A DNA stretch of 64,000 nucleotides from Takakia lepidozioides (taxonomy: Eukaryota; Plantae; Bryophyta), in contig CM060734.1 in assembly GCA_030704615.1 (NCBI GenBank), positions 55,180,001 through 55,244,000 of the forward strand, in the 5' to 3' direction. Below are positions 19,901 to 41,335 of the stretch, piece by piece; the stretch's first letter is position 1; each line of letters opens with the position of its first letter. Position numbers and translations under genes: made by a program. The notes below the pieces were generated by a model. The model was not told the DNA's origin and ran no database searches. It saw only the letters and a list, made by a program, of their open reading frames with translations.

Positions 19901-20269
19901 TTTTAGCAGCCCCCCATCTCATTGAGTGATAGATTTAAATCTCACCTTCAAGAGGGAATGCAACATACACCTCAGAAGATGATCTTCTCTTGCCATGGCT
20001 AATACTAACTTTTTCCTCACTGGAGTTGTCAAGGAGGTTGAACCCTGCACCATAAGATAAGCCTGGCGACAGATTGTCACAGCAATATTCACAAGGCATA
20101 ATCGTTTCCTACACATAAAAATATAATTGCTGTGAATCCAAGCAAAAACCAGTTTCAAATCAAGTTGAGCGAATTACAACTTGGAGGATGAGCTGCCTTT
20201 GCTGGTCCTTTCTTGATTGTGGTTTTAGGATACTGGGCCTTCACTCCTTTGGAGAAGTCTTTATCGTTC

Positions 20270-21865
20270 TTTCTTGCCTTTCTCTCTCTGGTTTCTCTCT
20301 CGCGCGCGCGGCAGCACGTCGGCGCTCGCGCGTCGGCGCTGCGCTCACTGGCGTTGGCGCGCTCGCGCCACCTCCACCACACCATGACGTCCAAACGCCG
20401 AAGGACGGCTGTCGACGAGGTAGACTACCCGTCTCCCTCACGTCGACCTATTCCCCTATGCTTCTTCTTCCTGCCCCAGTCTCTCAACTAGCCTCTCCTT
20501 TGCGTCAGTACTCCACAAGGAGTGCTGATGTTCAAACGCTTCGGGACCAAATCTCCATCTTACAAACGAAATGCATCTCGGAGAAGACTCTGCAGCAAGT
20601 GCTCGCTGCCCGCGACAGTGACTCGGAGGAGCGGTTAGCTTCCCTAGACAAAGACTGGCAGACGCGGATGGCTTCCCTTAACAAAAATTGGGAAAAGCGC
20701 ATGGATTCCTTGGACAAAGATTGGCAGAAACGCATGACAGACAGAGACACAGACTTGGAGAACAATATGCGAGTTCAGGACAGCGTTTTGCGGGCCTCTC
20801 TTCAGGAGTGCACTAGCAAACTTCAAGGTCTGGCGAAACATCTCAATGACAAATCCACACATTCGCGTCTTTCAAAACTTGAAGGCGAAGTGAAGACCTT
20901 CACAGAGAAGAGCCTCCCAGATCCCCTCACAGCAAGCATCCACCTGCAGGTGGAATCCCTTAGCAAAGAGCTGGAAACACACAGAACTGCGACGTCTACA
21001 ATGGCTCGGGAGCTCCAAGCTCACAAGGCAGAGGCCTCCTCCTGGGCTAATATAGTTAAGGGGAGCACATCCAACAACAGTCCTCACTCTCTGGAGGAGA
21101 CAGTCTCGACTACCTTGCGAGAGGAACAGCAACGGGCTTTCAAAGCCCTTAACATCAGGGTCACTGGGAAGCTAGGGGGCCTTGCTGAGGGGGACCCTCT
21201 TGACGCTGCCACCAGCCTTATTCAGCAAAACCTTGCTCTCCCACGAGGCGCGAGTGACATTGAAAAGGCTTGGCGTGCAGGATCTTCAGAGCACAAAGTC
21301 ATCTTCATTAGATTCAAGGACAAGGGTGCTCGGGATAGAGTCCTCAGGCAGAGGCCTCAATTGAGAGGTCAGGGTATGTACCTCAACGATGACTTGACCC
21401 CTTTGCAATACAATATCATGCGGGCGCAACTCTTGCAGGTTAAGCAAGCTCGAGCTCAGGGGCACTATGTTGTGTACCGGGATGGGAGGGTAATTGTTCG
21501 GAAGCACGAACGTCGTCCCTCTAGCTCTAAATAGGGGTTGGGGCACCATGAGACCAACGCACGCTCACATCTACACATTGGCTCATGGAACTGTAATGGC
21601 TCGTTGTGGAGCCACCTTCAAAGGCTTCTAAATATTATTTCCTTGTGTGATGTTCTTTTTCTTTTGGAAACTAATGCGTATGAAGGAAAGGACCCCCCTT
21701 TTATTCTCCGTTATAGCTTTCAGTCAGTGATTCGTCCACGTACAAGTCTCAAAGGATCTGGAGGTGTGGCTTGTTACTTTGCTGACTGGCTTCTCCCACT
21801 TATCTCCTTCCCATACAAAGACCCACTGACAAGGTACATTTGGTGTCACATCAAAGGCTACAACA
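20270..21865 (+). mobile_element. LINE 5' portion: ORF1 (coiled coil plus RRM/CTD-like, ~20458-21534) and start of the ORF2 APE endonuclease (21538-21865)
   Basis: Heptad-rich ORF1 with WANIVK, LNIRVTG, IFIRFKDK and YLNDDLT, followed by IGSWNCNG..DVLFLLET..KGSGGVA endonuclease motifs. Confidence 0.85.
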
Positions 21866-22454
21866 TGTTGAATAAGACTGGTGGCAGCGTCAAGAGGGTC
21901 CCCCTCAGCAAGGCCCCCTAGCTTCCTAGTGACCCTAATGTTAAGGGCTTTGAAAGCCCGTTGCTGTTCCTCTCGCAAGGTAGCCGAGACTGTCTCCTCC
22001 AGAGAGTGAGGACTGTTGTTGGATGTGCTCCCCTTAACTATATTAGCCCAGGAGGAGGCCTCTGCCTTGTGAGCTTGGAGCTCCCGAGCCATTGTAGACG
22101 TCGCAGTTCTGTGTGTTTCCAGCTCTTTGCTAAGGGATTCCACCTGTAGGTGGATGCTTGCTGTGAGAGGATCTGGGAGGCTCTTCTCTGTGAAGGTCTT
22201 CACTTCGCCTTCAAGTTTTGAAAGACGCAAATGTGTGGATTTGTCATTGAGATGTTTCGCCAGACCTTGAAGTTTGCTAGTGCACTCCTGAAGAGAGGCC
22301 CGCAAAACGCTGTCCTGAACTCGCATATTGTTCTCCAAGTCTGTGTCTTTGTTTGTCATGCGTTTCTGCCAATTTTTGTCCAAGGAATCCATGCGCTTTT
22401 CCCAATTTTTGTTAAGGGAAGCCATCCGCGTCTGCCAGTCTTTGTCTAGGGAAG
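21866..22454 (-). mobile_element. Inverted copy of LINE ORF1 (left part), continued at 40951-41335 beyond the LTR element
   Basis: Reverse complement closely matches ~20640-21225. The match resumes after the GGAAG TSD at 40951. Confidence 0.9.
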
Positions 22455-23180
22455 TGTCGCGGCCCTTTGCCTTGAGGGCAGGGGGTCGGGACACATGAGG
22501 GGCTGCTCCTGTGGTGGGGGCAGCGGCAGCGATAGGTATGGGGGGCTGAAGCACCCTTGAGTGCCCAAGGCGCTCAAGGAGGCGGAGGCGCTCACTAGGT
22601 GGAGCCCCGCACACCGGGTTGCGGTGGGGGTGGCTCCACAAGGGGTGGTGGTAGCTTAGCGGGACTTAGTGGGGGTGGCATAGGACTCACCATGGGGGCG
22701 GAGACCTCGTGGTGGGAGTCGTGGGGAGTCTTGGGACTCATCACGGTCCATAGGGGCCGTGGTGAGTGGGCCAAGACTCACCGCGACTCACCACCGGGAG
22801 TCGAGGGTTTTCGTGGTGGTTCGCCATAAAATGGCATGGCTGGTTGTGAAACCCCCGCGGACAACTACAGAAGTATATATAGGGAGTAGTAACCCCGAGA
22901 ACGGTGCAAGCCCGTTGGTGACCAAAAACTAATGAGTAAGCGAGCGAGCTGGAAAGCGAGCAAAGAGTGGGGAGCTGTTCCGGACTGCCAACTACCAAAG
23001 GGAATTCCCGCTGGGCCGAAATCGGTGGAGGGTTCTTTGGGAGATCAAAGGGGGACCGTTATGCCCCGGTGAGCAGCCGAAGCTCTAAGTTGGCCCGGCG
23101 GTTAGGTTGGGAGTTAGGCGCGCGCATCAAAGCGAGTGACTATGACTTGAAGGGGAGCTTAGCTAGTGAGGTGCGCGACA
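22455..23180 (+). repeat. 5' LTR of the chromovirus (726 bp, TG...CA)
   Basis: TGTCGCGGCC...GTGCGCGACA, repeated at 40232-40950. Confidence 0.95.
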
Positions 23181-23182
23181 CT

Positions 23183-23194
23183 TGGTATCAGAGC
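23183..23194 (+). promoter_or_regulatory. Primer binding site, tRNA-iMet type
   Basis: TGGTATCAGAGC 2 nt after the 5' LTR. Confidence 0.92.
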
Positions 23195-24299
23195 TTAGAG
23201 TTCAGTACGTGATCGTCCTTGGGATTGGCCTCATCATGGGGTCGGGCAAGCCAAAGCGAAAGCGGAACGGCCCAAAAGATGATGATCCTGGTGAGCCCGA
23301 TGGGGGCGACGTGTCACCGAGGCGGCCGTTTGAGGAAGCGATGCATGTTTCCGAAAACGAGGCCGCTTAAGAGCAGGAGGAATCCGAGGAGTCGGAGCCC
23401 GAGGAATCCCTGAGAGCTCCGACCGACCAATAGATGCCTCCCATGCCGGCAGCCTTTTGGGAAGGGTTGTTGGCGCAGTTTGGCGGGACGCTGAAAGACG
23501 TGTTGAAGGCGGCTAATGCCACTTCCACTAAGGCAAATGTCAAGTTATTTTACCACTAGTGTGAAACTAGCTAGGAAATAGCTAGCTTTTACATATTGAC
23601 ATTTGGGATTGGCCCAAGTGTCAATCCAGGGGTCAAGGCAGATTTAGGCCCTGGAGTGGTTATCTTCACGGCAAGCGTGGGAGGCTCATCTTTCTCGAGT
23701 TGAGCCTCACCGCGCCTAGCTATGGCGCCGTAGTGTGGATTCCCCATGGCGTGGGGTGCACTTGGCTTGACTTGTATTTGAGTGATGAGGTTATATATGC
23801 ATGAGTTTATGCTTCAGCTTTGTGAGCTCGCATGAGCTTGTGCTTGTATTCTTCTTCTTTATCACTCGAGAAAGATCAGCTCGTATCTGTGAGTGCCAGA
23901 TACGAGTTAGTTGTAGCACTTGTGGTTTTTGCTTGAGAATGAGAGAAACCAAGTTGTTATGCAAGGAGCACCATGGAGCTCTTGGTTGTTAGAAGCGGAG
24001 GCGATGTGGGTTACGAGGTGGTAGACCTTGGCATTCGATCTTCAGCTTCAGAGATGAAAGCACCATGCTGCAGGGCTGGAACAGGAGCTAAGAGGTGCGG
24101 CAAGGCCATGGAATGTGCACCTGGGGTTTCAGAGCTTGGAAGAAGAGCTCTTGCACCACAAGAGAAGTGTCTTGTGGCTGGAAATGTAAGCCTTAGGGTT
24201 TCAGGAGCTTGGCAAAGGCTATGGAGTGCTTAGTCTTGTCTTAGAGAGCATCAAGGAGCCAAGGAGCCAAGATAGGGGGCTGATATCTCTTGTGTGAAG

Positions 24300-24690
24300 A
24301 GGTTGCATGTGTGGAGCATGTATTCAGCTCATTGAAGCTTCCATCTTCAAGCTTGGAGGGCAAGCAAGGAAGAGGGAAGGGCTGACTTCCCTTATGTGAG
24401 GGCAATGTATGTGTGGAGCATGCTATCAGCCTGGTGAAGGCTTGCACTTTTAGGTGTGGGAGTGCAAGAAAGGAAGGAAGGGGCTGGTTTCCCTGCAGGG
24501 CATGTAGAGCATGCTTTCAGCCTGCTGAAGCTTGTATTATCAGGTTTGTGGGTGCAAGAAATGAAGCAAAGGAGCTGATTCTCTTATGGTGAGAGTGGGG
24601 CATGTGTGGAGCATGCCTTCAGCCCATTGAGGCTCTTGTTTTCAAGCCTTAGAGAGCTAGAACGGAAGGTCTAGGGCTGGTTTCCACTTG
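24300..24690 (+). repeat. Degenerate ~100-bp tandem repeat, about 4 copies
   Basis: Recurrent (GC)ATGTGTGGAGCATG..TCAGC..TGAAG..GCAAG..GGGCTG at roughly 100-bp spacing. Confidence 0.65.
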
Positions 24691-25124
24691 GAGTGAAAGA
24701 ACAGCACTTGTAGGGCCTATGTGAGTTGGGGTTTCAACTTCAAGCTTGAAGGGAGCGCAACTCTTGAAGCAACAGGTGTAGAGGGCTGGAATAGGCTCTA
24801 AGACAGATGCTATGGCCAATGAGAGTGCTTGAATGAGTGCTCACAAGGGCTGGGAACCAGCAGGGCTTGGTTGTTTGCCATTGAGTTTAGAGGCGTGTTT
24901 GGGGAGGCTAAGTGAGAAAGAAGGCTTGGTTTGTGGCAACCACCTCATGGCTTAGGGCTACTATGGTGGTGTGTGGGAGCCGAAAGAGCAAAGATACCTT
25001 GCTGATTTCCTCACAGCCACCATAGTTCGGTGGAAAGAAACCTAGAGTCCAAGAGACACAAACCCTAGCTTGGCGTGGCTAAACCCCTTGGAGAAATGGC
25101 TAAACTGCCAGAGCGGCCATGTGT

Positions 25125-26580
25125 GGGGCTGTGACAGGCTGTGGCAAGCTGTGTCAGGCTGTGACAGGCTGTGCCCAGTGGCCTTTGGGGCTGTGACGGG
25201 CTGTGACGGGCTGTGACAGGCCGTGCCCATGGCCTTTGGGGCTGTGACGGGCTGTGAGGGGCTGTGACAGGCCGTGCCTGAGGCCTTTGGGCTGTGACGG
25301 GCTGTGAGGGGCTGTGACAGGCTGTGCCCAGTGGCCTTTAGGGCTGTGACGGGCTGTGCGGGGCTGTGACAGGCTGTGCCCTGAGGCCTGTGGGGCTGTG
25401 ACGGGCTGTGACAGGCTGTGCCCATGGCCTTTGAGGCTGTGACGGGCTGTGAGGGGCTGTGACAGGCCGTGCCTGAGGCCTTTGAGGCTGTGACGGGCTG
25501 TGAGGGGCTGTGACAGGCCGTGCCCATGGCCTTTGGGGCTGTGACGGGCTGTGCGGGCTGTGACAGGCTGTGCCCTGAGGCCTGTGGGGCTGTGACGGGC
25601 TGTGACAGGCTGTGCCCATGGCCTTTGAGGCTGTGACGGGCTGTGAGGGGCTGTGACAGGCCGTGCCCATGGCCTTTGGGGCTGTGAGGGGCTGTGAGGG
25701 GCTGTGACAGGCCGTGCCTGAGGCCTGTGGGGCTGTGACGGGCTGTGACAGGCTGTGCCCATGGCCTTTGAGGCTGTGACGGGCTGTGAGGGGCTGTGAC
25801 AGGCCGTGCCTGAGGCCTTTGAGGCTGTGACGGGCTGTGAGGGGCTGTGACAGGCCGTGCCCATGGCCTTTGGGGCTGTGACAGGCTGTGAGGGGCTGTG
25901 ACAGGCCGTGCCTGAGGCCTGTGGGGCTGTGACGGGCTGTGACAGGCTGTGCCCATGGCCTTTGAGGCTGTGACGGGCTGTGAGGGGCTGTGACAGGCCG
26001 TGCCTGAGGCCTTTGAGGCTGTGACGGGCTGTGAGGGGCTGTGACAGGCCGTGCCCATGGCCTTTGGGGCTGTGACGGGCTGTGAGGGGCTGTGACAGGC
26101 CGTGCCTGAGGGCTTTGGGGCTGTGACAGGCTGTGCCCTGTGCCCTGTGGGGCTGTGATGGGCTGTGTCAGGCTGTTACAGGCTGTGCCCAGTGGCCTTT
26201 GGGGCTGTGATGGGCTGTGTCAGGCTGTGACAGGCTGTGCCCAGTGGCCTTTGGGGCTGTGACGGGCTGTGCGGGGCTGTGACAGGCTGTGTCCTGAGGC
26301 CTGTGGGGCTGTGACGGGCTGTGACAGGCTGTGCCCATGGCCTTTGAGGCTGTGACGGGCTGTGAGGGGCTGTGACAGGCTGTGCCTGAGGCCTTTGGGG
26401 CTGTGACGGGCTGTGAGGGGCTGTGACAGGCCGTGCCCATGGCCTTTGGGGTGTGACGGGCTGTGAGGGGCTGTGACAGCCGTGCCTGAGGCCTTTGAGG
26501 CTGTGACAGGGCTGTGAGGGGCTGTGACAGGCTGTGCCCAGTGGCCTGTGGGACTGTGACGGCTGTGACCAGTGAGCTGT
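25125..26580 (+). repeat. Minisatellite: 10-bp GGCTGTGA(C/G)N units organised in ~40-50-bp higher-order repeats
   Basis: Direct reading, e.g. GGCTGTGACG GGCTGTGAGG GGCTGTGACA GGCCGTGCCC ATGGCCTTTG. Confidence 0.97.
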
Positions 26581-27268
26581 GTGGCCTGTGCTGGTCTGTG
26601 GTGGCCCGTGTTGACCTGTGGACGGCCTGTGCTGACTCGTGGAGGCACTGGTGGACTGCCTAAGGACTGGCATGTGGTCTGGAAGGCCGAATTTTGAAGC
26701 TCGTGGAGGGCGGTTTGAGGAGTATCTTCATGATATTCCCATGGTCATGCAAGTGAGGGTAAGAGAGAGAAGAGTGTTGGGATGAGGGCATGCTGGGGTT
26801 AGGCATTGCTTTAGCTTCTCTTCCTCGTAGTTTCCACCCTCTCATTAGGCCAAGACCTTTCCGTAGGTGGAGGCAAGAGTCAGTCCGGGTTTGGGCTGGG
26901 GTGTCCTTGCAGGAGCAACACCGTGGAGTTGTTTTTGGTGTGGGGGAGTTGTCGATCTGATTTCTTGTGTTTGGATCCCCTCCATACCTGCATGCTTGAC
27001 TGTGCGCCATGCTAGTTTTGTGTGGGCGCTTGTTTTTATAGGTGATTGGTCCGGATTTGATCACCGGCCAGTCCTAGAGCATGCTGTCGATGGTGAGGCT
27101 GGGGTGATGACCAGCCAGACCATCATTGTTTCTCCTGTGGTGAGGTTGGAGGTGATGACCAGCCAACCATAGGAGTGCTTGCGGTGGATGCAGGTACAGG
27201 TGTAGGCTATGTTAGGAACTTAGTATTCCAAACCATAAGCCGCAACAGGTTCTCTACCCGGTTACCTT

Positions 27269-28750
27269 GTGGAGAGGGGGGGACATGTTCATGACCGGTT
27301 GAGTGTCAACACGGAGGTGCCACTAGTTGCTGGGGACAGTGCCGGTTCGAGCACTAGCGATACTAGTGGGTACACGAGACGAGGTGTGCGGTTTAGGCCA
27401 CCTTCACCTCCTGTGTCTTCCACGGAAGGTTCTGATTCGGATTGTGAATCAGGAGGGCTCATACCGGCGGTGCAAGTTGTTTCTTTGCCATTGTTGTGGG
27501 ACACAATGGAGGAGATGTATGGAGCTACCAAGGGGCCACGAAGGTACTCTGGGGCGGTGGGCACCATTGAGTTGGATGATTTTATCCAAGAGTTTGATAG
27601 TTGGTGTGATTTGCAGCAAATGCGCAATCCACAACTATTTACGCCGTTCATGGCATGGAAAGGGCTGTTTCAGCACCTTGAGGGGCCGCCTATGGATGAT
27701 TACCATGAGTTCAGGCGGGGGCATGAGGTTGAGATCGAGGAGTGGAGGATGTACTGGTCACCCGACTATGTCTCCATCACTAGGGGCACTAGAGCCACGA
27801 GGGCAGTGGCTACACCTGCCGCTGCACCGGCAGCTTCAGCAAGTAGCAGTGGGACTGGTGGTACAGTAGCTACGACGTCCACCCAAGCCACTACCACCAC
27901 CACTAGCACCAGCACTAGCACCCGTGCCTGCCTTCAACCCTGTTGTGGAGTTCTTCGAAGAGTTGAGAGGGAACTACCAAGGGGTGAGGACAGAGAAGTT
28001 GCGGAGCTTGCAAGAGTTCCAACGGAAGCCGACCGAGAGCTTGAGGGAGGCTTTCACTCGCATGAGGCGCTTGATAAATGTAACCCAAGGGGTTACGGAA
28101 GCTCAGGCAGTCCAATTCTGGTATGGGATATTGGACAAGGAGCTGAGGAGAAGGGTGCGGGATGCAACTCTCCTACAAGCGGCCCAACCCACCTTAGCAA
28201 ATGTGTTTTTGCTGGCAGAGCGGATAGAGCTCAACATGGTGGAGGAACGAGTGGTCATGGTGGGATTTGCTAAGGAGACACCACGGGGTAGTGGTGCTCC
28301 TAGCCAACCACTACCTCAACGTGCTCAAGGCAACAAGGGGGCTCAGGTGAAGCTCAGGGAAGGGCAGAGAGGACCTCAGATGCAGGGGTCTCTCCCTTCA
28401 TTTGCTGGCCAACAACGGGCGGATGTGGTGTGCTGGACATGTGGAGGACCCCATGTCAAGAAGGATTGTCCAGAGGGAGGCAAAGGGCCGGCACATGCAC
28501 AGCCTGCACAGTTGCAGTGTGGGCATTGTGGCAACACGGGCATGGAGAGGCCAGTGTTATGGTTTGCATCCTGAGTTGCGCCCAGGCCAGTTCCAAGGGA
28601 ACAATGGTGGCCGGGGGCGAGGGGAGCAGCCCAGAGGGGACGAGGTGGCCAGCCACGAGGTGCAGGCCAAGGGCAAGCTCAACGTGGCCAAGGACGCGGA
28701 GGTCAGGGTGTTGACCAAGGCATGGCCAACCGGCTTCAGCAGCTAGAGCA
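27269..28750 (+). pseudogene. gag of the nested element (frameshifted) with two Cys/His knuckles
   Basis: YSG..ELDDFIQEFDSW, FQRKPTESLREAFTRMRRL, CWTCGGPHVKKDC, and CGHCGNTGH..C across a frameshift. Confidence 0.8.
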
Positions 28751-29499
28751 GAGGCTCGCTGCCATGGCTACAGCTCAGGTGGTACCGGCTCTAAGGCCGG
28801 ATGGTCCACCTCCTGCTCCTGAGGGAGGAGATATGGGAGGCATGGGATTCATGTGTGGAGCAGCACTACCACTAGTGCAGGTGGAGTCTGCTGCAGCCGT
28901 GACTCGAGGAGCAGCACGAGTTCCTGAGCCACGAGGTGCAGAGGTGGAGTTGGATCCACAGCGTGGGGAGGCAAGCCGTCAGGCTAGGCTTCCTCAGTCA
29001 TTCACATTGGCGGAGACAGTGTCGACGCCATCCATGGCACCTAGTTCTCGCCCGACTGTTACCGTTACCGAGGCGGAGGTTACTATGCCATTGGGGAGAG
29101 CTACACGGGTAGCACCACTACCTAGTGTTGCCAAGGCTACGGCAGCTAGTGTGCTGCTAGGAGCGGCCACATCTGTGTGCCAGGCTCCATTGTTCTCGGC
29201 TACCATGATTGCGACGCCGGGGGTAAGACCAGCTGAGGTGTTCAGGCTGGCAGCTACACTCTGTGAGAGTGGGGAGGTTACTTCATCTTCTGCGGAGATA
29301 GTGGGAGGTGTAGTGCCGGAGGGATCCTCGGATTTGAGGGTCAAGACTGCCACGGCGGCGCCATGGCAAGCTGCAGCTGCCAGGTTGATGGAGCTGCCAG
29401 CTAGGCCAGCCATTGAGCGCGCCATGGTGACACCTGGAGTTGTCATGTTAGACAACCAGGATGGCATTTTCTGTTTGAGTGGACCGTGCAGGCAAGCAA

Positions 29500-29810
29500 G
29501 AGGTACCGGCCACTGCGAGTCTTGTTGGACTCGGGAGCTCAGCCATTGATGCTGGGCAGAGCTGCTATTGCAGGCTTGGGCCTCACGGAGGCGGATATGG
29601 AGCCTTGTCCTTTCCAGATACAGACGTCTCTGGGAGGATCGGAGCAGGCTCGGGGCATGACACGGCATGAGTTGGCTATCAGACTACGGCCGGATCACCC
29701 TACAGATGGCTCAGTGATGCGAGCCAAGGCCATTGTGACAGACGCAGTCTCATACGATGTCCTGGTTGGTGGGGCAGTGTTGTACCCCATGGGCTTCACC
29801 CTGGATTTTT
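29500..29810 (+). CDS. Retropepsin-type aspartic protease domain of the nested element
   Basis: VLLDSGAQP catalytic motif and a distal YDVLVG motif. Confidence 0.85.
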
Positions 29811-30229
29811 GGGAGGAGTCAGCTTCCTATAGGCCTGCATGGCAGTCAGGGGAGGGCCGGCGTGTGCAGCTCCCTGTGACGTTCATAGGAGGAGTTGCGG
29901 TTGCCCAGCGAGGCAAGATGCCGACACTAGCAGCATTCACAGCGGCAGTGAGTTGGCCTAGAGAGTTGCTTGAGGGCAATGCTCATTCAGAGGATGTACC
30001 ACCTCCGGGAGAGCAGGATGACATGTATGGTATGGCGGAGTTGCCTACCATGGTTGCTCAGACTCCATTGTGGGGCACGAGCAAGGATTTGCAGCGGGAT
30101 GCTGATCGACGGGTGCAACAAGCCTGGGTGGAGGCTTTTGTACCGTCAGGAGAGGAGGAGAGTGTGGGGATTGCACCAGGACCACCTCAATTGTCTCCAT
30201 TGGACACCACACCTATTGTGTGGCAGTCT

Positions 30230-31200
30230 CCGGATGAAGGCATTTGTCTTCTGGACTTGTTTGGCGGGATCAGCACCGGATTGGCTGCTGTGTTACAGGC
30301 AGGTGTACGAGTTCGGCGTTACCTGTATGTGGAGAGGGATGAGACTGCACGACGCGTTTCACTTCGCCATGTTGCTCAGTTGGTGCAGCGGTACCCTGAG
30401 TTGTTGTCGGTGTCTGCAATTCGTGGATATCAGCAGGCCTTGCCAGCAGACATTTCGTTGCTGGGGGGCGCAGGATTTGGAGCGGGTTGGCTCCATTGAT
30501 CTGGTAGTGGCAGGTTGGCCCTGCCAAGGGCATTCATCAGCCGGGCATGGCAATGGATTGCGAGACTCGAGGTCGGGTCTGTTTTGGGAGATGGTGGGGT
30601 TTTGCGCCACTTGCAGCTTCATCAAGCTGTATCTCCAGCATACATCTTGGAGAATGTGCCACTGATGGGCGATTCTCGGGCCAGGGTGATGGCCAGTGTG
30701 CATCAAGTCCGGTCGTGGCTTGGGTCAGCAGTGTTGCTAGATGCAGCTACAGTGGGGTCACGGGCTCATCGTCCACGGCTATGGTGGACTAACATGATGC
30801 CACCCGCACTGCTCAAGCGTGCATTTGATGGGGTGCAGCGGCCAGCACATCTCACAGTGGATAACATTCTGGACACAGGGAGGCAGTCTCAACGTGTGAG
30901 ACACGATGACCGTTCGCCTTTGGCAGTGGTCAACAAGGTGGGTCAACCACGAGCAGCATTACCTACACTGCTCAGCTTCCCAGGATCGCATGCTTTCCGG
31001 GATAGTGGACCTGGCCTCCTGTGGGATGCTCAGTTGCAGCAGTTAGTGGAGCCTAATGCTGACGAGCGTGAGCGGGCAATGGGTTTTACCACTGGTACCA
31101 CGGCGGTGTCGTCTCTTTCTGAGGCATCACGTCGTCAAGTGTTGGGGCAAGCAATGGATCTCAATTGCTTGACCTGGATTATCAGCTTGGCTCTAGCTGA
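30230..31200 (+). CDS. C5 DNA cytosine methyltransferase catalytic domain (DNMT3-like) inside the retroelement polyprotein; two frameshifts near 30465 and 30595
   Basis: Motif I LLDLFGGI, II YVERD, III DI, IV DLVVAGWPCQGHS, V SGLFWE, VI ILENV, VIII AHRPRLWWTN, IX ERERAMGF, X RRQVLGQAM, all in canonical order. Confidence 0.93.
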
Positions 31201-31647
31201 GCAACGCAGAGTGCGGAATACACTTCCCTCAATGGTCTCTCTGCCTACCGAGACGGTACAGGCAGTGAGTGGGGGCGAGCATATGAGGACCACGGGGTGC
31301 ATGCATCCATGGCACACGTGGGAGGTGCTCGAGGTTCAGAGGGAGTTGGCAGCCAAGGCGGCTGTGATGGATGAGGTTGGGGATTCTTCTCGGTTGAGGA
31401 GGTCCTCAAGGATGAGATGATGGGGCAGGATGATGCCTTGTCATTGACTGAGCAGGTAGGGAGTACTGCTCAAGAGGTTGCAGCATAGCAACCACGGGAC
31501 GCGTCCTCTACCTCTAAGCCCACTGGACTTAAGGTTGTAGTTACGGAGGACAATTGGGAGCCTGACATTGGACCCATTGTCACCGGAGGAGAGAGACGAC
31601 GTATACGGCGGTTCCTGAGGGCTTACAGGAATTGCTTTGCCTTCAGT

Positions 31648-34400
31648 TTGAAGGACTTGGGAGCACTGAAGGGTCAAGAGATCCGTATTGAGTTGGCCAC
31701 TGACACGCCAATCTTTCGGAGACCCTATAGATACAGTGACATGGAGAGGTCTTTGATTCAGATGAGGACTCAAGATCTCTGGGAGGCAGGTTTGGTGGAG
31801 CTCTCTGGTGGAGAGTATGCTTCAGCCACAGTGATGCCAGCCAAGAAGGATGTCTATGGCAATTGGACGGAGAGACGTATGTGCGGTGATTACCGGCCTG
31901 TAAATCGTCAGACCAAGTCCGATAAGTATGCCATGCCAACACCAGAGGAGATCTTTGATGCCATCGGGCATGCTAAGGCCTTTAGCACTTTGGATTTACG
32001 ATCCGGATATCACCAGTTGCCAATCAAGGAGGCGGACAAGCAGAAGACGGCATTCTGGGGGATCAATGAGCACGGCAAGGATTGCCTATATCAGTGGCGG
32101 TTCTTACCATTTGGGCTTAAGAATGCTCCTGCAGAGTTTCAGAGAGTCATGGATAGGATTCTAGCAGGGGTGGACTTTGCTCGGTGCTACATAGATGACA
32201 TCATCATCTTTAGTGTTACGATGGAGGAGCATGAGAGACACCTTCAGGTGGTATTGGAGCGCTTGAGAGCGCACGGATTGAAGTTGCATCCGGGGAAGTG
32301 CAAGTTTTTCCACAACCAGATTGAGTATCTGGGTCACATGATATATCCTGGAGGATTGGGGGTACAGCAGACTAAGGTAGAGGCCATTGCACAAATTCCA
32401 CGCCCCACGGATGTGAGCCGAGTTCGAGCTTTCATGGGGTTGGCAAACTATTATAGACGGTTTGTCAAGGGATTTAGTACCATTGCAAAGGCTCTAACCA
32501 AGCTGACCAAGGTGGACCAGGAGTGGCAGTGGGAAGATGAGCAGGAACGAGCTTTTCAAGAGCTCAAGGCGAGGTTGACCTCGGCGCCTATCTTGAGACG
32601 ACCTATCAGGGGGCGTCCCTTTCAGCTGCATACGGATTGGAGCATGCTGGGGCTTGGAGCGGTGCTCACACAGGTGGATGATGAGGGAAGAGAGTTCGTA
32701 GTGGCTTACGCTAGCCGCTCGAACAACGCTGCAGAGGCTAAGTACAGCTCATATGAGGGAGAGTGCTTAGCTGCAGTGTGGGCCGTGGCACACTTCAGGT
32801 GCTATCTATACGGCAATCTTTTCACCCTTGTCACGGATCACCAGCCACTCAAGTGGTTGATGGAGTCAGACAAGCTTACGGGGAAGCTTGCACGGTGGGC
32901 ACTTATACTCCAGGAGTATGACTTTCAGGTTGTGCATCGACCGGGTTTGGTCAATCGGGATGCGGATGGATTGAGTCGCAATCCATGCATGAGCCAGCAG
33001 GATGACACTGGAGCTCGGTGGCATGGTGAGACGGACGAGGAGATGGTGCCGGGATGGCACGCATCTGCATTTTTGTGTATCTTGGCATCGGGAGGTCAGA
33101 TTGGACCTACAACAGGGATGACTGTAGACGGAGTGTCTGAGGACCCTGAGGCTAGTGATGAGCTAGGTGGTGCCAGAGATATACATGAGGATTCGGCTGT
33201 GTTGGACTACCTCCGCACGGGAGACACGGCAGCCATTGTGACTGCCAGGGAGAGGGATCGGATCCTGCAACGAGCCAAGAGGTTCAAGTGGGAGGGGATA
33301 CACCTACTTCGAGTGTGGGAGGATGGTCGGGTGAGGATTGTGCCTCACCCCACACAGCGTGCACGGTTAGTGCGGCATGCCCATGAGGAGTTGGGGCATT
33401 TTGGAGTGCGACGCACTCACAGTTTACTGCAGGGGCAGTATTGGTGGCGTGGTATGCATACAGAGGTGCAACAGTTTGTGGCTAGGTGCATGGTGTGTGA
33501 CAGGGTGTGCTTCTTCATTCAACTCCCCTACACCACAGTTGCATCCTTTACCTATCATGGGATTGGGCTACAGGTGGAGTCTTGACTTCGCAGGACCGTT
33601 GCCACTGACTATGCGCCACCACAGATATGTGTTGGTGATGGTGGAGCACTTCTCCAAGTGGATTGAGTTGGTTCCATTGCCTGACAAGGCTAGTGAGGGG
33701 GCTGCGTATGCATTCTTGGATCGTGTGCTTAGCCGATTTGGTGCTCCAGCTGAGGTACTCACGGACCAAGGGAGAGAGTTCTTGGGAGTTTCAGGCTTTG
33801 TGTGATAAAGCCTTGATCGACCACCGCACCACTTCTCGGGATCATCCTGAGGCCGATGGCTTGGCAGAGAGAGTTGTTCAGACGGTGAAGAGGGTTTGCG
33901 CAAGTATGGCTTGCAGAAGGGACACCTAGGAGATTGGGATCTTCAGGTTCCTTGGTTAGCCCGGCTACAGGTTCAGCAAACAAGCATCACTTGCCTCCTT
34001 CTCACCATATTTCCTTCTCTTTGGCCGAGAGCCGGATTTGCCTGCAGCCATTCGTAGGGACACTGCTCAAGTCCTTAACCTTGACGATCCGGACGTGTGG
34101 GTACGTGCATGTGATCAGCGTGCAGAGTTGTTCAAGAAAGTCATGCCCATGGCTTTTGAGAACCTTGCCATTGCACAGCACCGTGATACGTTGAGGTATG
34201 CCACTATACGTGGTGGAGGATATCGTCCTGGGGTTCGGAGGTTTAGCCCTGGTGACTATGTTTATTTGCAGCAGACTGCTCCTACGACTCTGGATGTTAC
34301 TGCAGGGCGTGTTATTCTGAGGGTTCGAGAGGTGTTGCCCTCAGGGGTCCTGATCTTGGAGGGTCGGGATGGCATGACTTGGAAGGACCATGTGCGTAAT
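31648..34400 (+). CDS. RT, RNase H and integrase of the nested element (integrase frameshifted)
   Basis: [24 protein letters not shown] and YIDD (RT); HTDWS..YASR..TDHQPL (RH); H-H-C-C zinc motif, WSLDFAGP, TDQGREF, DGLAER (INT). Confidence 0.95.
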
Positions 34401-34469
34401 TGTGCCCATGTCATCTTCCCAATGTCGATGGCAGAGTTGACCCAAACTTGGCAGTGGTACCTGCAGGTT

Positions 34470-34618
34470 TGAGGTGCATGCTCTGTGGGTCTGCCAAAGG
34501 GGCAGCCACCATGCTGGTGTGTGATCGATGCTCAAGGGGTTGGTATATGGGATGCTTGACACCACCTCTTGAGAAGGTTCCTGACGGAGATTGGTTGTGT
34601 CCACACTGCTTGGGATAG
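34470..34618 (+). CDS. PHD finger at the integrase C-terminus
   Basis: CMLC..MLVCDRCSRGWYMGCLTPPLEKVPDGDWLCPHC-stop; C4HC3 pattern with the His read as Tyr. Confidence 0.88.
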
Positions 34619-35068
34619 TGGCAGTGGACATGACTGGAGGCAGCTAACAAGACATGGGAGGCCAAGCTCATAGGAGTCAATACATGAGATCCCAAGCTCA
34701 AGTTCACAGGTTGCAAGACGGCGACTAACGATGGCAACTCTTGCACCCGGCCTCTTGATCTATCGAGTTTGAGTGTAGTAGGGATAGTGGTGGAGGACTT
34801 AGTGAGGCTATGGTCACTATCACATCTTGTGGCTACCTGGACTTAGAGGGACCTAAGCACCAGCTAGGGGGGCGATTGTATGGACTAGTGACTGCCATAG
34901 TGGGCAGCGTAGTGGCAGCCTAGTGACTGACTAGTTGTAGCCTAGTGGTTGGACTAGTGGCTGGACTAGTGGTAGACTAGTGGTATACTAGTGTGTGGTG
35001 TGCACATGTGTTGTGTGGTTTTGGACAGCGATGTAGTTGTGTAGCGATATGTATGCGCACGACACAAA

Positions 35069-38000
35069 GTTTAAGGTGAAACCTAAGGAACCCGACACCT
35101 TCGAAGGCGTCCGAAATCGGAAGGCACTCAACACCTGGCTCCTGGAGCTAGAACAGTACTTCCGGGCGGCCAAGTTGAGTGACGAGGATCGGGTGGAAGT
35201 AGCTCTCACCTATTTGAGGGGCTATTCCCAACAATGGTGGCAGAAACGCCTTCACGACCGAGGTCCAAGCCCGGAAACCTTGAACTGGAGTGGGTTCAAG
35301 GAATTGATGAAGAGACAGTTTGTGCCCCTCAACGCGTCCTGGCTTGCCTGGGACAAGATGAGGAATTTGAAGCAAACAGATGACATTCGAGGATATGTCC
35401 AGGCTTTCAATGTGCTTTTGCTCGAAGTCGCGGACATGGCAGAACCGGAAATGGTCTTCAACTTTGTGGCGGGACTGGCCCCATGGGCCAGGCGGAAGTT
35501 AGAGGAGAAGCCACCTAAGACTTTGAACGAGGCAATTGAGAGGGCTGAATGTTTCTCGGATGTCCCTAGGGGTGAAAGACAAGGCCGTACGGAGCTGAAC
35601 CACAAGAAACCCCCGGCGGGAAGGTGACTCATTCCGACCGGAAAAGAAGTGGGATAGGCCACGCGGCGACAATGGCACGTGGAAATCGAAGGGAGGGCCT
35701 TCACAAGTCAAGGCGGCACCCGGTTGCTTCGAAAGGAAAAGCGGGTGGAGCGGCCTATGGCGGACAGAAGTCAACCTTTGATGGAGTGTGTTTCAATTGC
35801 GGGAGCCTGGGCACATGGCCAAGAAGTGCACGAAGCCCCGGCAATTGAACATGACTCGGGCGACCACAGAACTGTCGGAAGATACCATCAGTCGCTTGGT
35901 GGAAGCGGTGGTGGCCAGGACTTGCAAGGTAGGCAAATTTTCTTGTGAGTTGTATCAGGAAACTGGCGCCTTACGAAAAGGGAGTCAGTTATTGTTCGTG
36001 GATGGGATAATATCCGGAACTAATGTGTCGTTGTTGGTGGACACAGGAGCGTCGCACTCCTTCATGACACCGGCAACGGCACAAAAGCTGGGACTCCCGA
36101 CAAGTGACGTGGGGGCCTCTATTGAGGTGCGTTCTGCCAAAGGTAACCGCAATTGGCGACAAGGTTGGCGTTTGATGTTCCTCTTCAACTGGGGAGTTGG
36201 GAGGGACGTGAGAACTTCACCATCTGCGAGATCGATGGAGTGGATCTCATTTTGGGGATGACATTTTTGAGCAAATCCGGAGCGGTCATAGATGGCCGCA
36301 AGAGAGTAGTCACGCTGCCATGTGGGAATGGTGGCGAGGTCTTACGAGTGTCGGAAATGCCCAAACCAATGGGAGGGCGAATAAACCTTCTGTCAGCAAG
36401 GGAGTGGGCCGTGGAGGAGGCACACGAGCCCCAGTTTTTGCTCTACATTAGAGAAGTGAAGGGAGAAGGCGATGGGGAGCCGAGCCCAGATTGGATCAAG
36501 GGGATTTTGGAGAAATACCAGGATGTGATGCCGGAGGATTTACCAAGCGGTTTGCCACCGCGAAGAGGAGTTGACCACAAGATTGAGGTGATACCGGGAT
36601 CGGAACCGCCTGCCAAGGCGCCCTACCGGTTGAGCCACAGAGAGTTGGTCGAGCTGAAGACTCAACTCAAAGATCTAATGTCAAAGGGGTACATCCGGCC
36701 GAGTAAGTCACCTTACGGAGCCCCGGTGCTATTTGCAGATAAAAAGGATGGGACGCTGCGGATGTGTGTCGATTACAGGGCTCTGAATAAGATGACTATA
36801 AAAAACCGGTACCCTTTGCCAAAGATCGACGACCTCTTCGATCGGTTGGCAGGAGCGAAGTATTTCAGCCGGATCGACTTGCGTTCCGGCTATCATCAAA
36901 TTCGGGTGGCGGAAGGAGATGAGGAGAAGACCGCGTGTAGGACAAGGTATGGTTCATATGAGTTCTTGGTGATGCCTTTTGGGCTCACCAATGCACCAAC
37001 GACATTTAACATGCGATGAAGCCTTTTCCAGGAGTGGTTGGATGACTTTGTGATCGTGTACATCGACGACATCTTGGTGTACTCGAAAACAAAGGAGGAG
37101 CACCTGGAGCACCTGAAAAGGGTGCTCTAAAAATTGCGGGAAGGGAAGCTGTATGCCAAAGATTCAAAGTGCGAATTCGGGGTCACAAAAGTGGAGTTCC
37201 TGGGGCATGTGATTACTCAGGATGGGATCAGAATGGATGACAGGAAGGTGAGGGCAATCTTGGACTGGGAGCCTCCGACTTCGGTCCCGGGAGTGCGATC
37301 CTTCCTAGGACTCGCCTCCTATTACCGGAAGTATGTGAGAAATTTCACCAAGATCGCGGGACCGCTGTCAGACCTTCTGTGTAAATCCAAAGTCTGGGCA
37401 TGGAACACCTTTTGTGGCCAAGCTTTTGCTGAATTGAAGCAGCGGATGGTGGAAGCTCCAGTCTTGAAAATCCCGGAGTTCGATCTTCCGTTCGAGATAC
37501 ATACAGATGCGTCGGACTTCGCGATTGGGGGTGTACTGATGCAAGATGGACGTCCAGTGGCTTACGAAAGTAAGAAACTGAATGAAGTGGAGCGACGGTG
37601 GCCGACGCACGAGAAAGAGATGAAGGCGGTGGTGCACTGTCTTGAGCTTTGGTGCCACTATGTTGGTTCCAACCCAGTGAAGGTGTTCACGGACAATGTC
37701 ACGGTGAAGTATTTTGCCACGCAGCCCAAGTTGTCCCCAAAACAACTTAGGTGGCAAGATACTTTGGCGGTGTTCGACGTGGATATCCAATACAAACCGG
37801 GACGAGACAACGTGGTGGCCGATGCTTTAAGTAGAAAGCAGCAGCTCTTGTTGGTGTACAAGGGCGAGACGGCGCTCCAAAGGAAGATCCGGAAGGCTTG
37901 CCGGAAGGATGAGCTGGCGAAGTCTGTGATGCAAGACTTGAGGATGGGGGTTAAATCGCAGTTCCACTTGCATAATGGACTGCTCCGGTATAAGCAAAAG

Positions 38001-39325
38001 CGTCTCTACGTGTCGAAGGGAGGGATCAGAGATAGCCCCTTGAGAGAATGCCATGATAGCCCGCTTGCGGGCCACGGCGGAGCCAAGCGCACCGCGACAC
38101 TCTTGAAGAAAGAGTATTTCTGGCCCAAACTAAGGGAGGAGGCAGAGGAGTATGTCAAGACATGCACCACATGCCAACAAAACCGGAGCGAGTACAAAAA
38201 GCAAGCGGGGCTGTTACAACCCTTGCCGATTCCAGAGGGGACTTGGGAAAGTGTCTCGATGGATTTCATGACTGTTATGCCACTGTCAAAATGATTCGAT
38301 GCAATCATGGTGGTGGTGGATAGGTTCAGTAAAATGGGCCATTTCATCCCCACTAAGGAGACGACAACGGCGCAGGAGACAGGGCGACTTTACTTCGCCC
38401 ACGTCTTAAAGCATCATGGAGTCCCGAAGGATATTGTCTCGGACCGCGATCCAAAGTTTACGAGTAAATTTTGGAGGACACTTTGGAAGAAGATGGGGAC
38501 GAGGCTGAAGATGAGCACCGCCTTCCGACCTACAACCGACGGCCAAACGGAAAGAGTGAATTCCGTAGTGAAGCAGATCTTGCGGAATTACGTGTCGGCA
38601 GACCAATCAGACTGGGTGGAACACTTAGACGCGGTAGATTTCTGTTATAATAACACAGAACACTCCGCAACGGGAGTTTCCCCTTTCGTATAGGTCTATT
38701 GGAAAGCACCTCTGGTGCCGACAAGTTGGGCCGCCCAGGACGTTGAGGAACCGGCAGTAGCGGCGGTACTGGAAGAACGCGAGCGTTTGTTGAAGCTCGC
38801 AAAGTACAACATTGCCAAAGCTAGGAAACGGTATGAAAGGCAGGCGAATCGGAAGCGGAGGGAAGTGAAGTTTGAGGCAGGCACGGAGGTCTAGTTGAAC
38901 ATCAAGAATTTTCGACTACCTCCGGAAGTGAGTCCGAAGTTCGTACCTCCACATGCGGGACCCTTTCGCATTCGGAAGGTTATGAATGAGGATGTGTATG
39001 AATTGGAGCTGTCGGCAAACAGCAAGGTGCACCCAGTATTCTATGTCTCCCTTTTGAAGGCTTACTTCAAAGATGAAGCGCGTCCAAATCGGCATCAAGT
39101 GTTGCATCCGCCACCTATGCTGTTGGATCATGAAAATGAACCTGAGTACGAGGTAGAGGCAGTACTTAAAGTCGAGGAGGTTTAAGAACCGAGAAACGGA
39201 GTATCTCGTCAAATGGAAGGGCTATCATCATGTGGAGGCATCTTGGGTGCGTGCCTCAGAAATGGGAAACGCATCCGAGGTGGTTGCAGCGTTCGAAGGG
39301 CGACCTCAAAAGCGGAGAAGCGTTG
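35069..39325 (+). pseudogene. Chromovirus gag-pol remainder: gag, PR, RT, RH, INT, chromodomain
   Basis: CFNC knuckle, LVDTGASHSF, YIDD (~37059), TDASDFAIGGVL, SDRDPKF, TDGQTER, and EYEVEAVL..YLVKWKGY..EASW chromodomain (~39145-39300). In-frame stops near 37128, 38292, 38690 and 38892. Confidence 0.92.
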
Positions 39326-40231
39326 ATGGGGACATCAACCTTGGAGCGTGGGGGAGGAAATGCATGCTTAGCCTGGCTTAGCTAGCTCAGGAATCCGATT
39401 GCAAAAACTTGTATTGTACAAAATTTGCTTTAAATGAAATGTTTCAAAATGTTGTGCTTCCTATTTTGTTTGGAATAATGATGCATGGTATGGTTGGCTA
39501 GTGTGTAGAATGCATGCTAGCTTACAAAAGTGGGAGAGGTAAATTGGGTTAATCGTGTGTTTGCGCAGTGCCGAAATCGGGTGACTCCCATTCAAAGGGC
39601 AAGGAAACTTGCGCCTTCTTTGGGAGTTCACGTGCTAGTGCGCACCTGACGCGTGCGCGTACTATAACTGCGCTACCGAGGGGGGTTGCCTTGTAGTGCG
39701 GGCTAACGCGGAAGCTACGTGCTTCCGTTCACGTAATATAATTGTGTAGCCTCGGGACGAAGTCGTAGTGCGGCTTCGGCGTGTTCCCGTACCTCAGGCC
39801 AGCATTCCAAGGCGGACCCAATTGTAGTGATTGGGGCGCACGGTTCGTTCAAGGGTATCTTCCTAGTCAAAGAGGGTTTGAGGTGAACCCTTGCTCAAGG
39901 TGATGCCAAAAGCGGCATCATGAGCGGTCGCAAGCAATGTTGTTGCAGTAAGGCGATTCGATCCTCGGGGAGGATCGTTCCTTGACCTTGAAGTAGGCCA
40001 AGAAGAGTGCACTGGGAGGAGCTGGAGAGGCTCCACCCTTGGGCGGGACTTGGAGGAAGTCGGCCGAACTAGCTAGTGGAGAGTAGAGTCAAGTGTGGGG
40101 TTTGGTTCTTTGTCATGGGACGCCATGGTACGGAAACAAACTCCTTGATGTGGGACGCCACAACTTGGATGTTCGTTTCTACAAAATGGACAAGTCGATG
40201 AGGACATCGACTCCCTGTTGGTAGGGGTGTA

Positions 40232-40950
40232 TGTCGCGGCCTTTTGCCTTGAGGGCAGGGGGTCGGGACACATGAGGGGCTGCCCCTGTGGTGGGGGCAG
40301 CGGCAGCGATAGGTATGGGGGGCTGAAGCACCCTTGAGTGCCCAAGGCGCTCAAGGAGGCGGAGGCGCTCACTAGGTGGAGCCCCGCACACCGGGTTGCG
40401 GTGGGGGTGGCTCCACAAGGGGTGGTGGTAGCTTAGCGGGACTTAGTGGGGGTGGCATAGGACTCACCATGGGGGCGGAGACCTCGTGGTGGGAGTCGTG
40501 GGGAGTCTTGGGACTCATCACGGTCCATAGGGGCCGTGGTGAGTGGGCCAAGACTCACCGCGACTCACCACCGGGAGTCGAGGGTTTTCGTGGTGGTTCG
40601 CCATAAAATGGCATGGCTGGTTGTGAAACCCCCGCGGACAACTACAGAAGTATATATAGGGAGTAGTAACCCCGAGAACGGTGCAAGCCCGTTGGTGACC
40701 AAAAACTAGTGAGTAAGCGAGCGAGCCGGAAAGCGAGCAAAGAGTGGGGAGCTATTCCGGACTGTCAACTACCAAAGGGAATTCCCGCTGGGCCGAAATC
40801 GGTGGAGGGTTCTTTGGGAGATCAAAGGGGGACCGTTATGCCCCGGTGAGCAGCCGAAGCTCCAAGTTGGTCCGGCGGCCAGGTTGGGAGTTAGGCGAGC
40901 GCATCAAAGCGAGTGACTATGACTGAGCTTAGCTAATGAGGTGCGCGAAA
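40232..40950 (+). repeat. 3' LTR of the chromovirus (ends AA rather than CA)
   Basis: Copy of 22455-23180 with about a dozen substitutions and one 7-bp indel by eye; purine-rich tract immediately upstream. Confidence 0.95.
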
Positions 40951-41335
40951 GGAAGCCAACCGCTCCTCCGAGTCACTATCACGGGCAGCGAGCACTTGCT
41001 GCAGAATCTCCTCCGAGATGCATTTCGTTTGTAAGATGGAGATTTGGTCCCGAAGCGTTTGAACATCAGCATTCCTTGTGGAGTACTGACGCAAAGGAGA
41101 GGCTAGTTGAGAGACAGGGGCAGGAAGAAGAAGCAGAGGGGAATCAGGTCGACGTGAGGGAGACGGGTAGTCTACCTCGTCGGCAGCCATCCTTTGGCGT
41201 TTGGACGTCATGGTGTGGTGGAGGTGGCGCTAGCGCGCCAACGCCCGTGAACGCAGCGCCGATGTGCTGCCGCGCGCGCGCGAGAGAGAAACGAAAGAGA
41301 GAAACCAGAGACAGAAAGGCAAGGAAAAAAACAAA

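Follow-up and report, generated by a model that had tools for sequence, protein, structure and literature searches.

Several retrotransposons are known to carry a methyltransferase. The closest to the case described here is KnitGypsy-Dnmt3 of the alga Klebsormidium nitens, a Gypsy element with DIRS-like repeats and a DNA methyltransferase (DNMT) domain under purifying selection, whose capture was assigned to the K. nitens lineage alone (de Mendoza et al. 2018, PMC5890265; statements on the cited papers refer to the portions available to us). Those portions place the DNMT in the Pol frame and mention no PHD finger, circle or leaky stop (PMC5890265). SymbioDIRS-Dnmt3 domains methylate CG de novo in yeast (PMC5890265). 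Here we analyzed a 64,000-nt stretch of the moss Takakia lepidozioides (GCA_030704615.1, contig CM060734.1, 55,180,001 to 55,244,000, forward strand). This whole stretch is the window, and all element positions are in window numbering on the plus strand. A preliminary description, made from the sequence alone, had noticed in it a Ty3/Gypsy element with a methyltransferase between protease and reverse transcriptase (RT). Our comparisons suggest that it is a broken copy from an old Gypsy lineage of green plants, of the KnitGypsy-Dnmt3 kind.

Like KnitGypsy-Dnmt3, the window element carries within its Gypsy polyprotein a Dnmt3-related domain that has no introns and unpermuted motifs, and this domain is under purifying selection. 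If the left terminal segment is called A and the right one B, copies are arranged as A-coding-B-A-B or A-coding-B; the longer form is found in relatives and indicated by host contigs running from B to A, and the window copy is A-coding-B. The protease-DNMT order also occurs in K. nitens KFL_013780020 (P0141), a protein that groups with the window type in the DNMT tree. Unlike KnitGypsy-Dnmt3, the element resides in a land plant, and its relatives span mosses, liverworts and chlorophytes. SymbioDIRS-Dnmt3 and the methylase-bearing DIRS/PAT elements share a retroelement-borne methyltransferase and split repeats (PMC5890265; PMC7192593), but these integrate by tyrosine recombinase. The window element instead encodes a DDE integrase, and its TG...CA ends are flanked by a 4-bp duplication. 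The self-priming Gypsy elements Tf1/Sushi and Tcn1 resemble it in lacking a tRNA primer site and in the self-priming duplex by the end of the long terminal repeat (LTR), which is predicted here (PMC6317226). However, these are chromoviruses with ordinary LTRs, and the window element differs by its PHD finger and its permuted ends. The integrase of foamy virus is reported to cleave a palindromic CA...TG circle junction (PMC1180852), a cut that we propose here from the sequence, although the foamy virus palindrome is the end-to-end junction, while here it would lie within the LTR and the integrated form is permuted.

We found no description of a land-plant DNMT3-Gypsy element in the literature searched, which yielded just the 2018 paper and articles citing it; a mention is possible in Repbase, most subscription journals or the large supplement of PMC5890265, which the search did not reach. 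It is absent from the passages available of PMC12344493, PMC10952607, PMC11982613, PMC5784723, PMC6317226, PMC9940879, PMC8557442 and bioRxiv 2021.11.30.470311. For one alga, the pairing of DNMT3 with Gypsy and the split repeats have been described before; the range over land plants and chlorophytes, predicted leaky stop, PHD finger, self-priming and permuted-LTR anatomy appear to be new within the literature searched. The preliminary description knew of no report in land plants. The land-plant occurrence is real, but it is probably not an independent novelty, the element most likely belonging to one family with that of Klebsormidium.

The methyltransferase domain and its family

The 11.5-kb element extends from TGTC at 23538 to GACA at 35064, exactly the ends first given for it, and a 4-bp target-site duplication (CAAA) flanks both. 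The empty (uninserted) site is seen in one contig of run X6. Gag, protease, RT, RNase H and DDE integrase follow in the Ty3/Gypsy order (Table 1). The window gag matches the N-termini of Marchantia and Sphagnum relatives, and the protease of relatives P0019 and P0020 scores above the Pfam cut-off. TG...CA ends with a 4-bp duplication are found in the window and in loci L026, L029 and L031, and no direct LTR pair flanks the coding region of the window copy. Among 13 frames scanned with Pfam there was no tyrosine recombinase family; PF00665 and PF17921 were found instead. No chromodomain follows the integrase of the window element. That place is occupied by a PHD finger, which the preliminary description had left unnoticed. 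ESM Atlas labels only repeat the Pfam names.

Every methyltransferase motif named at the outset was recovered, in order and on the same strand, between the protease DSGA (29528) and the RT motif YIDD (32188): motif I (DLFGG) at 30254, PCQ at 30519, ENV at 30650, RPRLWWTN at 30770, ERERAMGF at 31064 and LGQAMD at 31142. The catalytic Cys, Glu and Arg are present and motifs I-X are unpermuted. As proposed, the N-terminal part of the domain is in the protease reading frame. The domain had also been taken for an integral part of the polyprotein, and it is indeed joined to the Gag-protease frame, but it does not lie inside one open Pol frame, a stop codon being present at 31486-31488. Two compensating frame breaks fall within the DNMT (near 30463 and 30596) and a third after it (near 31391); gag and integrase are broken as well. 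At these places the contigs from runs X1, X6 and X7 vary in length, so the breaks belong to the window copy and not to the family. The frame holding motif IV matches the PF00145 hidden Markov model (E 8.6e-8; 32.4 bits vs a cut-off of 22), and the other two single-frame DNMT pieces have no Pfam match on their own.

A likeness to DNMT3 over DRM or MET1/CMT had been read from the motifs, and profile and fold rankings agree with it. In a profile built from 75 relatives and ranked against solved structures, DNMT3A scored E 5e-26, DRM 5e-13 and M.HhaI 2e-8. The fold of the window C-terminal piece alone was poor (predicted local distance difference test, pLDDT, 51) and was set aside in favor of the natural domain of L008, which is intact and gave a pLDDT of 97. 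The L008 model superimposes on DNMT3A with Z 29.5 and a root-mean-square deviation of 2.6 over 274 residues, and the best bacterial enzymes reach Z 24-26. By these profile and model-based rankings, DNMT3 is the nearest type to the domain, ahead of DRM, DNMT1/CMT, DNMT2 and the bacterial enzymes. It shares fold and motif order with host DNMT3, as represented by animal DNMT3A/B/C structures, but differs in its ~25% identity, in having neither PWWP/ADD nor the plant companion domain, and in being intronless within a polyprotein. A moss DNMT3 for comparison as host enzyme is cited in PMC10952607. Across 123 full domains, the motif IV cysteine (PC/EC/GC) is kept in 113 and EN in 117; the motif VIII arginines and the ENV glutamate are kept.

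Other identities were considered and rejected. A bacterial origin was rejected on the lower rank of bacterial enzymes in both profile and fold, DRM on its profile score relative to DNMT3A, and an assembly chimera or nested host gene on the lack of introns and on an order shared by 30 loci.

Reads of the host contain the family in abundance. In run X1 (host reads), 93,265 contigs fall on an 8.7-kb stretch of the element, with depths of 18-27 thousand over DNMT, 15-24 thousand over gag and 31-43 thousand over RT; in run X6 the three are alike. Run X8 gave zero cover over 29351-32529, from 5 contigs only, and this was not taken as domain loss. Sister copies have kept the DNMT, its depth matching that of gag in X1 and X6 and the order being shared by 30 of 37 metagenome loci. 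None of the three outcomes named beforehand as refuting the preliminary description was obtained, namely absence of the domain from sister copies, its neutral evolution, or the lack of a significant C5 methyltransferase match. These loci, which were retrieved by the DNMT itself, comprise 30 with protease/gag-DNMT or DNMT-RT order, 4 with RNase H-DNMT-integrase order and 3 too short to place. Among proteins, 964 clusters (50% identity) match the C-terminal piece of the window DNMT. The 185 proteins examined divide into 41 with protease/gag-DNMT-RT, 70 with RT-RNase H-DNMT-integrase and 74 with DNMT alone (mostly short pieces). Given these two domain orders, the DNMT must have moved or been captured twice. 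The integrase carries a PHD finger in both.

Named carriers include Marchantia polymorpha, M. paleacea, Riccia sorocarpa, Calypogeia fissa, Sphagnum fallax and S. troendelagicum among mosses and liverworts, and Klebsormidium nitens, Scenedesmus and Monoraphidium among algae. No vascular plant is among the named matches listed, and no relatives were found in the viral contigs scanned. In a midpoint-rooted DNMT tree of 121 sequences, the protease-DNMT-RT type and K. nitens P0141 form one clade (support 0.935) with one intruder. The root of the RT tree (50 sequences) is weak (support 0.23), and that tree was not used for the order of events.

Several members of the family deserve separate mention. 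In P0087, P0310, P0037, L030 and L032-L034, among relatives that include chlorophytes (Scenedesmus sp. and Monoraphidium) and many proteins without a named source, the DNMT lies between RNase H and integrase, and in many relatives of this order EC replaces PC in motif IV. Two deleted derivatives, L027 (1062-2711) and L035 (3381-4635), have lost the protease region and kept the DNMT. P0332 and P0333 (Marchantia MpVg00370 and MpVg00540) are intact-looking Gag-protease-DNMT frames on the male sex chromosome. P0367, a 52% identical DNMT on a 2.4-kb contig, is labeled as a bacterial metagenome bin and is likely a mis-binned plant or algal element.

A conserved stop codon and split terminal repeats

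The stop past the DNMT is a TAG in the RT frame with CAA CCA directly after it, and it lies 72 codons upstream of the RT probe. The matching codon is a stop with CAA next to it in 25 of 26 loci, the window included (20 TAG, 5 TAA); the remaining locus reads TAG TAA. Intact-looking liverwort proteins end 74-76 residues past the DNMT. UAG-CAR-YYA is the readthrough signal of tobamoviruses (PMC3159437). The stop after the DNMT appears to be a bryophyte feature of the family. Gag-protease-DNMT is likely the main product, with RT-integrase made by readthrough, which would supply the DNMT at Gag level and make it abundant in the particle.

At the ends, L026 and L029 are A-coding-B-A-B with 4-bp duplications. 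The 3' ends read B-A-B in L007, L009 and L024, B-A in L003, and B alone in L018, L036, L031 (which has a 4-bp duplication) and a single insertion recovered in both L010 and L014. The window copy has the reduced form. No split repeats were detected in L032 and L033, which are possibly incomplete, and L030 is below the length limit of the test. In 20 contigs of run X1, the element 3' end is followed by two bases and then the start of A. The B/A border forms the palindrome GACA-GC-TGTC in L003, L009, L029 and host contigs. Three of six internal B/A palindromes are altered at the two central bases (L007 at 6624, L024 at 7715, L026 at 14243), and most of these changes are of the type that methylated cytosines would produce. 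In the genome, copies of the proposed cut site may be decaying, or methylation may protect them.

A purine tract is conserved before the first B in the window and nine metagenome loci. The sequence directly past A is no tRNA site; it is complementary to part of A itself, over 13 bases in the window and up to 17 in Sphagnum-type loci. A 13-nt inverted repeat was reached in 7 of 2000 resamples, and the fold has a z of -6.4. Between the window and the Sphagnum-type loci, 6 of the 13 self-priming pairs are changed on both sides, in effect one comparison. The element thus has both a primer-binding site, as a predicted self-priming site, and a polypurine tract. Because the purine tract precedes B and the priming site follows A, B+A would be the LTR of reverse transcription, and the inserted ends would derive from the middle of this LTR. 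We infer that B+A behaves as a true LTR, with B as the 5' part of U3 and A as the 3' part of U3 plus R-U5. A move of B from the left to the right end would require joining of the ends of the complementary DNA (cDNA). Elements with such ends escape LTR-pair finders.

A possible circular route and its alternatives

The account towards which we lean, with little better than even confidence, runs from a Gag-level DNMT through packaging and methylation of the element's own cDNA to integration of a circle at a palindrome inside the LTR. Most ribosomes would halt at the UAG past the DNMT, few continuing into RT-RNase H-integrase-PHD, and the protease would free the DNMT from the Gag polyprotein. The RNA would start inside A, fold back onto the site past A and prime itself. 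With the plus strand beginning at the purine tract before B, a linear cDNA with a B+A LTR at each end would result, and its ends would join into a circle. Integrase would then cut the palindrome at the B/A border after each CA, leaving ordinary processed ends. Recessed CA ends with 2-base overhangs are the usual processed form in retroviral integration. One cut in a two-LTR circle would give A-coding-B-A-B, which could undergo a further round of copying. The window form, A-coding-B, would come from a one-LTR circle, from two cuts or from B-B recombination at a later time, and would lack the 3' repeat required for strand transfer. The DNMT would mark the longer-lived free DNA, either protecting it or letting it arrive resembling host chromatin. 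DIRS and PAT elements, for which a circular step has been proposed, also carry methylases, although the larger part of DIRS-1 cDNA proved to be linear and single-stranded (PMC7192593).

Several observations weigh against this account. The full CAR-YYA context is found in the window and L008 only; Sphagnum-type loci have CAA-CCC, 5 of 6 bases of the signal, and five loci have TAA. Algal relatives P0347 and P0067 are continuous, without the stop, and 70 of the 185 proteins carry the DNMT inside Pol. Because some algal relatives thus have no stop or have the DNMT in Pol, supply at Gag level is not general. RT depth in X1 is ~1.5x that of DNMT, so that some copies sharing the RT may be without the domain. 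The metagenome loci represent about three lineages, and several are one insertion in two samples. If either palindrome of a two-LTR circle can be cut, A-B-A-coding-B is also predicted, but among 10 complete 5' ends this form is absent. Base changes apart, the five A/B junctions are exact, and templated copying could explain this instead of end joining. In yeast, no methylation by the Klebsormidium domain was seen, a result that its authors call inconclusive (PMC5890265).

What the DNMT does for the element can be read in other ways. Between the window and six distant loci, non-synonymous difference (pN) in the DNMT is 0.18-0.21 at a saturated synonymous difference (pS) of 0.72-0.81, and the RT pN of 0.12-0.16 is near it. 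The ratio dN/dS among close, decayed Sphagnum-type copies is 0.39-0.86 for DNMT and 0.26-0.54 for RT. The broken window copy and the ratios of these close pairs might suggest a neutral passenger from a one-off capture of a host DNMT3, but the pairs are decayed, and RT in the same pairs has the ratios just given. Low pN at saturated pS between families, the 964 matching clusters and the identical position in mosses, liverworts and Klebsormidium speak against a passenger. On these sequence comparisons the domain is under purifying selection; domain order, shared loci and selection refute the passenger reading, which we regard as scarcely credible. It is also possible, if very unlikely, that the domain is kept for binding nucleic acid or methylating RNA rather than DNA. 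The yeast result and the EC of many algal relatives would fit such a role, whereas the retained catalytic cysteine, ENV glutamate and motif VIII arginines do not, and the fold is nearest DNMT3A/B/C over the whole domain, with the tRNA methyltransferase type DNMT2 far lower. An action on chromosomes we consider unlikely, though less so: the DNMT could methylate the new insertion and its flanks, or other element copies, limiting harm to the host or silencing competitors with the help of the PHD finger. The presence of that finger in both domain orders and the DNMT adjoining integrase in the chlorophyte order are consistent with this, and host benefit and chromatin effects are raised in the discussion of PMC5890265. 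However, the bryophyte stop splits the DNMT from integrase and PHD finger, so that a particle protein fits better than a subunit of the integration complex. Moreover, CpG/CHG ratios do not single out the element, its CpG ratio of 0.52 being no different from that of the neighboring long interspersed nuclear element (LINE; 0.47) or a host exon (0.50).

The repeats, taken by themselves, allow a further explanation that we find doubtful yet weightier than those just given. A-coding-B-A-B may be copied on a template, as in Ngaro/PAT, the internal B-A junction rebuilding the ends, with A-coding-B arising by later B-B recombination and no cut of a two-LTR circle. The exact A/B junctions in all five loci and the missing A-B-A-coding-B would follow, the same arrangement is the rule in tyrosine recombinase elements, and the B copies are only about 340 bp apart. 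Yet a purine tract before B and a priming site past A are those of an ordinary LTR of B+A, and a DDE integrase is present in place of a tyrosine recombinase, along with TG...CA ends and 4-bp duplications. The circular route can also be drawn more boldly, in a version that we hold only tentatively and think rather improbable. A Gypsy lineage spread across green plants would have shifted its integrase site to mid-LTR and would spread by circular cDNA; the packaged DNMT3 would protect the circle, or mark one palindrome so that only the cut giving copyable A-coding-B-A-B occurs.

Insertion setting and significance

The remaining features of the element are collected in Table 1.

Table 1. Features of the methyltransferase-bearing Gypsy element in window numbering
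Feature	Position	Strand	Evidence
Target-site duplication, left copy (CAAA)	23534..23537	.	sequence; empty site in run X6
Terminal segment A, TGTC start, CA end	23538..23864	+	sequence; homologous to segment A of Sphagnum-type loci
Predicted self-primer, complement of site just past A	23688..23700	+	13-nt perfect inverted repeat; resampling; covariation
Predicted self-priming primer-binding site, directly 3' of A	23864..23876	+	inverted repeat; fold; covariation
G-rich tandem repeat array, 5' leader	25091..26630	+	
gag (capsid-like region and zinc knuckles), frame breaks	27506..28570	+	PF03732 weak, E 0.0017
Aspartic protease, DSG at 29528	29498..29830	+	PF13650 weak, E 0.0029
DNMT3-type C5 cytosine methyltransferase domain, motifs I to X unpermuted	30233..31213	+	
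Conserved TAG then CAA CCA; predicted readthrough site, RT frame	31486..31488	+	
Reverse transcriptase, YIDD at 32188	31702..32400	+	PF00078 E 3.4e-33
RNase H	32617..32982	+	PF17917 E 6.8e-36
DDE integrase (zinc finger, core, C-terminal part), frame breaks	33319..34400	+	PF17921 E 6.8e-16, PF00665 E 3.3e-11
PHD finger ending integrase	34472..34612	+	PF00628 E 9e-11
Polypurine tract-like motif before segment B	34864..34875	+	same motif before B in 9 metagenome loci
Terminal segment B, GACA end	34876..35064	+	sequence; run X1 contigs
Target-site duplication, right copy (CAAA)	35065..35068	.	sequence

Around the element lies another Gypsy (22455-40948), into whose gag it has inserted and whose ordinary LTRs (22455-23178 and 40232-40948) differ by 13 substitutions in 719 columns and which has a 5-bp duplication and a primer site that we take to be of tRNA-Met type. 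Because these LTRs are so similar, the DNMT element must have inserted recently, roughly 1 million years ago or less at a moss substitution rate of about 9e-9 per site per year. By eye, the outer Gypsy has a chromodomain-like end near 39145-39250. It sits in turn in a LINE-like element (20119-22454 and 40951-43440), with an ORF1-like frame at 20119-21534 and an RT-like frame at 41234-43440, both recognized by eye; part of the ORF1-like region is duplicated and inverted at 95-99% identity. Farther along, a host gene for a DExH3-type RNA helicase occupies 47380-49479 as one open frame of about 620 codons, its best named matches being Ceratodon (80%) and Physcomitrium (78%), then clubmoss and liverworts (72-75%), a ranking that by itself makes a moss the probable host. 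An assembly gap of 500 N lies at 1282-1781.

Why transposons should keep the silencing enzyme of their hosts has been a question since 2018; the cases known then came from algae in which experiments are difficult. Mosses and liverworts prove to hold the family in abundance, Marchantia among them, whose gene models Mp4g09160, Mp5g06330, Mp5g06860 and MpVg00370 are Gag-protease-DNMT frames in which activity, packaging and effect on the methylome are testable. The Marchantia methylome paper counts five host methyltransferases and, in the portions available, is silent on the element frames (PMC5784723). If the bolder circular account is true, the many Gag-protease-DNMT frames of Marchantia polymorpha that look intact and carry annotations of ordinary genes may add to its methylome. 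The ends link carriage of a methyltransferase to elements with split repeats. Integration of circular cDNA is a route long proposed, and then set aside, for retroviruses. If true, this element, with its DDE integrase and an inserted form that is a permuted circle, would offer a natural example of integration by way of circles.

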